The notes beneath the pieces were generated by a model. The model worked only from the letters and a program-made list of their open reading frames with translations. It did no database searches and was not told the DNA's origin. DNA of 64,000 bases from the NCBI GenBank assembly GCA_964408285.1, contig CAYOYV010000001.1, positions 219,841-283,840 of the forward strand. Reading direction: 5' to 3'. The DNA is from an uncultured Nitrososphaerota archaeon (GTDB lineage Archaea > Thermoproteota > EX4484-205 > JAAOZO01). Made by a program: the position numbers and the translations under genes. Below are positions 28,934-29,553 of the stretch, one piece after another. Numbering within the stretch: position 1 is the first letter of the stretch; every line of letters begins with the position of its first letter.

Positions 28934-29055
28934 CTAAGACAAGAGCCCACAGCATGAGAAGAAATATATTTCGCAGAACGTCATCTGACATTCAGTGAAC
29001 ACTGCAAATCAGAAGCGGGCAAGTTCATATATAGGCTATGGCTTCAAGACAATGG

Positions 29056-29136
29056 GCCAGGGTGGCCGATTGGAAGGCGGCGGGCTGCAGCGAAGCGGCG
29101 ACCCACTTCACGGGGGTTCGAATCCCTCCCCTGGCT
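29056..29136 (+). tRNA. tRNA-Cys(GCA) with 10-nt intron at 37/38 (29091-29100); CCA not encoded
   Basis: Acceptor GCCAGGG/CCCTGGC, discriminator U, D arm GCCG..AGGC, anticodon CT-GCA-G, T arm GGGGG-TTCGAAT-CCCTC; TATA about 25 nt upstream. Confidence 0.92.
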
Positions 29137-29139
29137 TCA

Positions 29140-29165
29140 CCCTCAGATCTCTTTATCTCTGAGGG
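29140..29165 (+). other. 8-bp inverted repeat immediately 3' of tRNA-Cys
   Basis: CCCTCAGA-10 nt-TCTGAGGG; possible terminator or processing hairpin. Confidence 0.45.
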
Positions 29166-29214
29166 GTCTGGCACAAGACTTATTAGTAATCCGTTATACA
29201 ACCCTCTTATAAAA

Positions 29215-29553
29215 ATGGTCATTAAGTGCGAGAAATTCGTGAAGGATGCCCTGCCCGCTACAAGGTCAATGCTTGCGAGAAAGATGTTGTATGAGAAAGG
29301 AATGACTCAGATGCAAGTCGCAAGCGTGTTGGGCGTATCGCAGGCTTCCATAAGCCAGTACCTGAGTGCAAAAAGGGGCAACGCATTCCTCAAGCAGCTA
29401 TCATCTGATCCTCTGATAAAAGCATCGATCGAGGAATTATTGACCAACTTGCTTGATAGCAAGCGTTCGACAGACCAGAAACAGGAAGCGTTCTGCGAAT
29501 TCTGTGAAGTAGTCAATAAGAGACTGCGGAAGGGCTCAAGAAAAAGGAGCTGA
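29215..29553 (+). CDS. HTH transcription regulator (COG2522-like)
   Basis: CE..VK..LPA.R, GMTQ.QVA..LGVSQASISQYL..KRG, C..C; true start ATG 29215. Confidence 0.85.
   Translation: MVIKCEKFVKDALPATRSMLARKMLYEKGMTQMQVASVLGVSQASISQYLSAKRGNAFLKQLSSDPLIKASIEELLTNLLDSKRSTDQKQEAFCEFCEVVNKRLRKGSRKRS

Follow-up and report, generated by a model that had tools for sequence, protein, structure and literature searches.

A probably functional tRNA-Cys gene with a 10-nt BHL intron in an uncultured sediment archaeon

Introduction

Relaxed bulge-helix-loop (BHL) introns at position 37/38 are a described form of tRNA intron in crenarchaeal and thaumarchaeal pre-tRNAs (PMC5829648). The closest experimental system is the BHL mini-helix of the Cenarchaeum symbiosum pre-tRNA-Tyr, which is cut by the (alpha-beta)2 EndA of Aeropyrum pernix; residues K44 and R46 of that enzyme lie in a Crenarchaea-specific loop, and K44 is needed for the loop-site cut of a BHL substrate (PMC3241643). 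Interrupted tRNA-Cys genes are also on record, since both spliced and unspliced forms of tRNA-Cys(GCA) from A. pernix and Sulfolobus tokodaii have been found as cDNA (PMC4307357).

Regarding length, the shortest introns given for C. merolae are 11 bp (PMC3728597). A motif-free census in a 2026 preprint takes in inserts of at least 10 nt only, so that a 9-nt intron would escape it. The accessible parts of the literature searched (PMC4033280, PMC5829648, PMC4090602, PMC7714728, PMC3978253, PMC8450103, PMC3218864, PMC4307357 and a 2026 Asgard preprint) contain neither a lower limit for archaeal introns nor an archaeal intron of 10 nt or less. Nor do the accessible parts of the literature examined contain an experiment in which the 5' site is cut in a hairpin loop of just 6 nt seated immediately on the central helix.

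Here, we describe a tRNA-Cys gene that carries a BHL intron of 10 nt at the canonical position. We argue that it is a genuine and probably functional gene, and that it represents the short extreme of a known kind of intron. Its host is an uncultured sediment archaeon with a genome assembly of 1.82 Mb in 46 contigs that is 93.7% complete, and the window is the whole stretch of DNA analysed, 64,000 nucleotides long, to which all positions refer unless a contig is named.

The gene and its surroundings

The tRNA-Cys(GCA) gene occupies 29056-29136 on the forward strand, as do all of its features, and covers tRNA positions 1-73. It was identified by Rfam RF00005, by ARAGORN and as a cloverleaf read without the intron. 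The RF00005 match to the forward strand scores 42.2 bits, with a gathering score of 29, at an E-value of 1.4e-05 over model positions 1-71, and spans the gene from end to end. Default ARAGORN finds a tRNA at the same place, misfolds its anticodon arm and leaves its isotype unnamed, and the isotype is still unnamed when introns are allowed. Removal of 29091-29100 in silico yields a tRNA-Cys(GCA) with a normal cloverleaf and an ARAGORN score of 113.5, in which the anticodon loop has 7 nt, a GCA anticodon, U33 and a purine at position 37.

Direct reading of the sequence and a parse of the arm agree on the layout. The 5' exon (29056-29090, positions 1-37) ends in C32-U33-G34-C35-A36-G37, and its anticodon GCA, at 29087-29089, is also the one named by ARAGORN after removal of the intron. 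The intron itself, CGAAGCGGCG, is 10 nt long and lies at 29091-29100, in the canonical 37/38 position, as ARAGORN again bears out. The 3' exon, which ARAGORN likewise recovers once the intron is removed, follows at 29101-29136 (positions 38-73). The anticodon arm as a whole thus reads GCGGG-CUGCAG-[CGAAGCGGCG]-A-CCCAC. Elsewhere in the molecule, the acceptor stem is GCCAGGG/CCCTGGC and the D and T arms are normal. The discriminator is U73, a T at 29136 that is followed by TCA, the CCA end not being encoded. U73 is an identity element for cysteine, and it is common to all 15 other tRNA-Cys genes that were parsed. A sequence-only reading of this DNA had proposed a tRNA-Cys here in which an intron of 10 nt separates G37 from A38, and its coordinates, sequence and position are all correct on the evidence of RF00005, ARAGORN and our own reading.

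Upstream of the gene, sequence reading picks out an A/T-rich box, CATATATA, at 29026-29033 on the forward strand, which is a candidate archaeal TATA box. Its centre lies approximately 26 nt before tRNA position 1, and this placement fits the distance expected between an archaeal TATA box and the start. A sigma-70 promoter scan has no bearing on this box, because archaeal promoters are outside its reach. Downstream, three bases past the tRNA, an 8-bp perfect inverted repeat at 29140-29165, CCCTCAGA ... TCTGAGGG, encloses a 10-nt T-rich loop. This repeat may serve to end transcription, or else to direct 3' processing of the tRNA; it is not among the results of the terminator scan. The mechanically generated list of open reading frames also holds one of 171 aa on the forward strand (29038-29553), which begins upstream of the tRNA and spans the entire tRNA gene, and the upstream part of which is probably non-coding.

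The same sequence in other assemblies

The source is a metagenome-assembled genome, and such an origin would allow the 10-nt length, or the unusual A at position 42 discussed below, to be an error of assembly or consensus. DNA of the locus is present in eleven DNA runs, and we compared the contigs of four of them, none flagged as a possible source (X3, X4, X5 and X8, which are coded as four studies and are possibly one campaign). Single contigs from X4, X5 and X8, together with two overlapping contigs from X3, span the tRNA, and these independent assemblies show no difference, neither substitution nor indel, inside 29056-29136. Their sole differences lie in the flanks, a T>C at 28984 and an A>G at 29139.

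The word depth in these other runs is low, at approximately 3-8, which leaves the error explanation some room. An apparent insertion behind 29073 in X8 comes from a 151-nt contig that belongs to another organism's tRNA and matches 29056-29090 alone, and the remaining short pieces at the locus are tRNA-Cys genes of other organisms. Nevertheless, the tRNA is identical in the contigs of four further runs, so a fault in one assembly explains neither the length of the intron nor A42, and both are real features of this population. No longer intron turned up in the contigs compared, and we regard an assembly or consensus error as extremely improbable.

Intron motif and folding

The intron forms a central helix with the anticodon loop. 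All four possible pairs form between C32-U33-G34-C35 and intron bases G8-G7-C6-G5, one of them being G-U. A 3-nt bulge that adjoins the anticodon stem, C9-G10^A38, contains the 3' splice site in its canonical setting. The 5' splice site is within a hairpin loop of 6 nt, A36-G37^C-G-A-A, on top of the central helix; a 5' bulge is lacking, and no bases are spare for an outer helix on the 5' side. Each of these elements had been predicted from the letters alone (the pairing of CUGC at 32-35 with intron GCGG, the CG^A bulge and a 6-nt 5' loop without an outer helix), and the parse recovers all of them with 4/4 pairs.

Measured against the strict hBHBh' motif, with its two 3-nt bulges, 4-bp helix and two outer helices, the intron falls short: of these elements it has one bulge, at the 3' site, and the 4-bp helix. 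The elements of the relaxed BHL motif (a 3-nt bulge, a 4-bp helix, a splice site in a loop and the 37/38 position) are all there, with weak thermodynamic support. Sliding both cut sites by one base (A36^G37 ... C9^G10) gives an identical mature sequence. We also considered other intron placements that would give a perfect anticodon stem, and none is present in the sequence. The same geometry, with a 4/4 helix, recurs in three further introns of the genome: the 9-nt intron of tRNA-Ser(UGA), the 13-nt intron of tRNA-Arg(UCG) and the 16-nt intron of tRNA-Ala(GGC).

Computed folding does not favour this structure. For the 27-nt arm (29080-29106) at 37 C, the BHL fold comes to -6.8 kcal/mol and another structure is the MFE, with -9.2 kcal/mol. 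At 60 C the BHL fold is again less stable than the MFE, and at 75 C a positive energy is computed for it. The fold z-scores of the tRNA-Cys are unremarkable (-0.81 and -0.48). In contrast, the MFE fold of the 9-nt tRNA-Ser(UGA) intron is BHL-like. Since MFE folding does not produce the BHL form for the tRNA-Cys, we count folding for nothing in favour of the intron.

Splicing enzymes and a proposed pathway

An intron of this design, it had been suggested, may need an EndA of relaxed specificity, and the genome does encode the broad-specificity type, with two paralogs, one of which has lysines where A. pernix has K44 and R46. The two EndA open reading frames (194 aa on contig C4 and 217 aa on contig C8) each carry both EndA Pfam domains. 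The 194-aa protein matches EndA of S. tokodaii (2cv8, E 2.3e-45) and of A. pernix (3p1z_B, E 3.3e-43), keeps the DHAPF histidine and has K-P-K aligned to K44-P-R46 of A. pernix; judged by these residues, it looks like the catalytic subunit. The best structural match by sequence for the 217-aa protein is M. jannaschii EndA (1a79, E 3.4e-21). A threonine of the 217-aa protein aligns to the histidine of the M. jannaschii KEHS stretch, which we take to be the catalytic histidine, and this difference suggests a structural role for the protein, as a beta subunit. With two paralogs, one of which has the loop lysine, the genome has the enzyme type reported for BHL introns, and we infer that the two assemble as an (alpha-beta)2 enzyme. 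RtcB is also encoded (PF01139 at 560.7 bits, C15:34836-36143, minus strand). On contig C15, the RtcB gene and that of the interrupted tRNA-Ser(UGA) are approximately 2 kb apart, a proximity that is probably coincidence.

In our view, this is probably the working tRNA-Cys(GCA) gene of the genome, its 10-nt BHL intron being cut by an (alpha-beta)2 EndA and its exons joined by RtcB. Under this proposal, an 81-nt core precursor would be transcribed, with an anticodon arm that holds the 10-nt intron between G37 and A38. In the cell, the anticodon stem would serve as the outer helix, followed by the 3-nt bulge C-G^A38, the 4-bp helix and the 6-nt loop. A heterotetrameric (alpha-beta)2 EndA, with the Crenarchaea-specific loop lysine in its catalytic subunit, would then cut both sites. 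RtcB would ligate the two tRNA-Cys exons, and the mature tRNA would be expected to function despite its one mismatched pair.

The anticodon-stem mismatch

That pair is C28-A42, formed by the C at 29081 (sequence reading, ARAGORN cloverleaf) and the A at 29105, both on the forward strand. The mismatch, which had been noticed in the letters alone, is present here and is the same in the contigs of the four other runs. It is the sole non-standard stem pair, the acceptor, D and T stems being intact. Comparison with relatives shows that the departure is at position 42, where a G is found in all compared tRNA-Cys genes: 15 of the 15 others that were parsed and 7 of 7 intron-less relatives. The other tRNAs of the genome that the parser resolved with a canonical arm all have five of five anticodon-stem pairs. 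The neighbours of the mismatch are G27-C43 and G26-U44 above it and three G-C pairs below it, and because of these flanking pairs, C28-A42 is most likely simply tolerated.

Alternatively, the mismatch might be repaired after transcription, by conversion of C28 to U or of A42 to inosine, so that the anticodon stem becomes fully paired. Archaeal tRNAs are known to undergo C-to-U editing, at position 8 in Methanopyrus kandleri, and this precedent counts for the idea; within the present genome, its sole support is the mismatch itself. Against it, the cytidine/dCMP-deaminase domain PF00383 has no match in the 93.7%-complete genome, whereas the same search finds it in 12 of 14 control genomes. The search thus gave no candidate for the cytidine-deaminase protein of CDAT8-type editing, and the two THUMP-domain open reading frames of the genome have no deaminase with which to be fused. 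We know of no archaeal tRNA editing at position 28 or 42, and a lone mismatch between G-C pairs needs no repair. The C-to-U editing of C28 that had been suggested earlier thus finds no support, and repair of either base appears very unlikely.

Copy number and the possibility of decay

A search of the 93.7%-complete genome for a second tRNA-Cys gene, the existence of which would have weakened the case for this one, yielded no candidate. The search covered RF00005 (18 matches), ARAGORN with introns (20 genes) and a scan for T arms and acceptors. A relaxed scan for GCA loops returned 99 raw matches across the genome, and the gene at 29056-29136 is the only one that is tRNA-like. A second gene could be missing from an assembly of 46 contigs and 93.7% completeness in which approximately two dozen tRNA genes are recognised.

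The scarcity of recognisable tRNAs is itself a feature of this genome, which gives 18 RF00005 matches and approximately two dozen recognisable tRNA frames despite its 93.7% completeness. In several of these frames, an insert interrupts the D arm, the T arm or the 26/27 position (e.g., C8:5809-5910, C15:26285-26377 and C14:30017-30140), and it is probable that multiple or non-canonical introns conceal many tRNA genes of the host.

These observations bear on a different account of the locus, in which the gene is a decaying or non-functional tRNA-Cys copy, unspliced or unused, with the working gene in the unassembled part of the genome. The incomplete assembly and clearly incomplete tRNA set speak for it, as does C28-A42, which is unique among the compared tRNA-Cys genes and the parsed anticodon stems of the genome itself, and so does the fact that the BHL fold is not the MFE. 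However, no rival gene has come to light in the searches of the assembled genome, and apart from C28-A42 the molecule is intact in its stems, its discriminator U73, its anticodon, its T-loop and its 4/4 central helix. The tRNA is also identical in the contigs of four other runs while its flanks vary, a pattern that fits constraint, with sampling that is shallow, and the A/T-rich box lies at the expected promoter distance. Decay is therefore unlikely in our judgement, and we retain the reading of a working gene.

How short are the introns of this lineage?

The 10-nt intron of tRNA-Cys(GCA) at 29091-29100 (+) is not the shortest in its own genome. The parse shows that tRNA-Ser(UGA) on contig C15 (C15:38281-38376, minus strand) has an intron of 9 nt, and it gives 13 nt for tRNA-Arg(UCG), 14 nt each for tRNA-Arg(CCG), tRNA-Phe(GAA) and tRNA-Ala(CGC), and 16 nt for tRNA-Ala(GGC). 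Reading by hand adds tRNA-Arg(UCU), with a canonical intron of 12 nt plus a D-loop intron, and several further tRNAs of the genome have non-canonical or multiple introns. The tRNA-Cys intron is accordingly the short end of a lineage habit, several introns of the genome sharing its loop-type design. The 9-nt intron of tRNA-Ser(UGA), CCTTGAGAA, lies at 37/38 and has a 4/4 helix and a 5-nt loop. The first 7 bases of this intron repeat, exactly and in tandem, the exon bases C31-G37 (CCTTGAG) that precede them, which hints at an origin by local duplication of the anticodon loop.

A sister genus, represented by genome G002, has an intron-less tRNA-Cys with 78% identity and a tRNA-Ser(UGA) with a 10-nt intron. 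Other canonical introns parsed from genomes G001-G004 measure 13-49 nt. Another tRNA of G002 (L296, G002:C9:27138-27220) is 82 nt long and has 18 nt between its anticodon-stem strands; read by hand, it most resembles a tRNA-Thr(CGU) in which 11 extra nucleotides, at approximately 31/32, immediately precede the anticodon loop and form a short non-canonical intron.

Two pattern scans extended this comparison to the phylum, each detecting only tRNAs with the typed anticodon-arm sequence in a sample of the phylum. The tRNA-Cys scan of 401 genomes gave 11 matches in 10 genomes. An intron of 10 nt was found in the host genome alone, introns of 11 nt in six genomes (G086, G195, G348, G336, G080 and G330), and introns of 12 nt and 13 nt in one genome each (G243 and G327, respectively). 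The match in G143 sits inside a 30-nt intron and is not a short intron, and one further match is no tRNA. In three of these tRNA-Cys genes (L284, L285 and L286, from G243, G195 and G327), a second insert lies within the T arm, besides the anticodon-loop intron of 11-13 nt. The tRNA-Ser(UGA) scan was noisy, with 90 matches, of which 30 loci plus 9 regions were examined and the rest judged by eye. Verified introns measure 9 nt in the host, 10 nt in G002, 11 nt in G009 (of the same order as the host), 12 nt in four genomes and 13 nt in three. The other short-gap matches whose regions were examined are all coding DNA.

Metagenome contigs supply further examples, to be taken as a sample of introns of 10-12 nt and not as a count. 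Among the matches listed, from at least 118 loci, one tRNA-Cys (L199) has an unrelated 10-nt intron with a 4/4 helix, three more tRNA-Cys genes have introns of 11 nt and one has an intron of 12 nt. A loose pattern applied to genome contigs gave at least 120 loci, almost all of them chance matches in bacteria, and the only tRNA-Cys genes with an intron among the matches listed are L049 (14 nt) and L110 (12 nt).

Within the limits of these scans, introns of 10 nt or less are rare, are concentrated in the host's family and are not unique to the tRNA-Cys gene. The sequence-only reading had named the commonness of such introns as grounds for doubt; in the genomes scanned they are rare. Its suggestion that the intron lies at or below the known minimum is borne out in part. 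The intron is at the low end, other short tRNA-Cys introns of the phylum measuring 11-13 nt, but it is no unique record, given the 9 nt of tRNA-Ser(UGA), the 10 nt of G002 and the 10 nt of L199. The sequence-only reading also placed the archaeal lower limit near 11 nt, a value that the accessible parts of the literature searched do not give and with which the present scans happen to agree.

Implications

We tentatively raise a broader idea, which we hold with rather less than even confidence: that the host's sediment family shrank its canonical introns to 9-10 nt, under the 11-nt floor of the other scanned genomes, with the 5' cut falling inside a hairpin loop of 5-6 nt seated straight on the central helix. 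If introns of 9-10 nt are truly spliced, an (alpha-beta)2 EndA would need no more on the 5' side than the 4-bp helix and a handful of loop nucleotides. This would set a new practical lower limit, and any census that starts at 10 nt or above would barely catch such introns or would miss them. A BHL intron of 9-10 nt would also be a natural minimal substrate for a heterotetrameric EndA, useful for probing the smallest 5' loop that can be cut. Its mechanistic value is modest, and the picture of archaeal tRNA splicing is unchanged by a 10-nt intron in tRNA-Cys.

The practical value lies in annotation. This tRNA-Cys is misread by default ARAGORN and goes unnamed by ARAGORN with introns, and cut-offs of 10 nt or more lose the 9-nt serine intron. 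Through such misreading, combined with length cut-offs, the only tRNA-Cys of genomes of this type can go unannotated.

Comparison with known systems

The arrangement found here is most like that of the C. symbiosum pre-tRNA-Tyr BHL, in which a 3-nt bulge by the anticodon stem holds the 3' site and is followed by a 4-bp helix and by a terminal loop with the 5' site. The enzymology is alike as well: the C. symbiosum/A. pernix system depends on the Crenarchaea-specific loop lysine of EndA, which the catalytic subunit of the host also has. In contrast to that system, where cleavage was observed, cleavage of the host tRNA-Cys is predicted. The host loop has only 6 nt, 4 of them from the intron, which keeps the whole intron to 10 nt.

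The interrupted tRNA-Cys genes of A. pernix and S. tokodaii show that such genes occur elsewhere in the Thermoproteota. Those organisms are cultured hyperthermophiles, whereas the host belongs to a sediment lineage. Within the host's own family, the mini-introns of tRNA-Ser(UGA), 9 nt in the host and 10 nt in G002, share the position and the loop-type motif of the tRNA-Cys intron. They interrupt a different tRNA, and the 9-nt intron carries an exon repeat, while the tRNA-Cys intron has none.

Close counterparts in other Thermoproteota genomes and in a metagenome contig are the tRNA-Cys introns of 11-13 nt (G080, G336, G348, G330, G086, G195, G243 and G327) and the 10-nt intron of L199, which interrupt the same tRNA, at 37/38, with the same BHL layout. 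As in the host gene, L199 and four tRNA-Cys genes of the G080 type have a 4/4 helix and a purine-rich 3' bulge. The intron sequences of L199 and of these Thermoproteota are nonetheless unrelated to that of the host except in the stretch that pairs with CUGC, and all of their genes have G42, where the host has A42. Since the nearest relative with a tRNA-Cys, G002 of the same family, is intron-less, the host intron is probably either a separate gain or a lineage-specific survivor, one that shares with its counterparts a position and a design.
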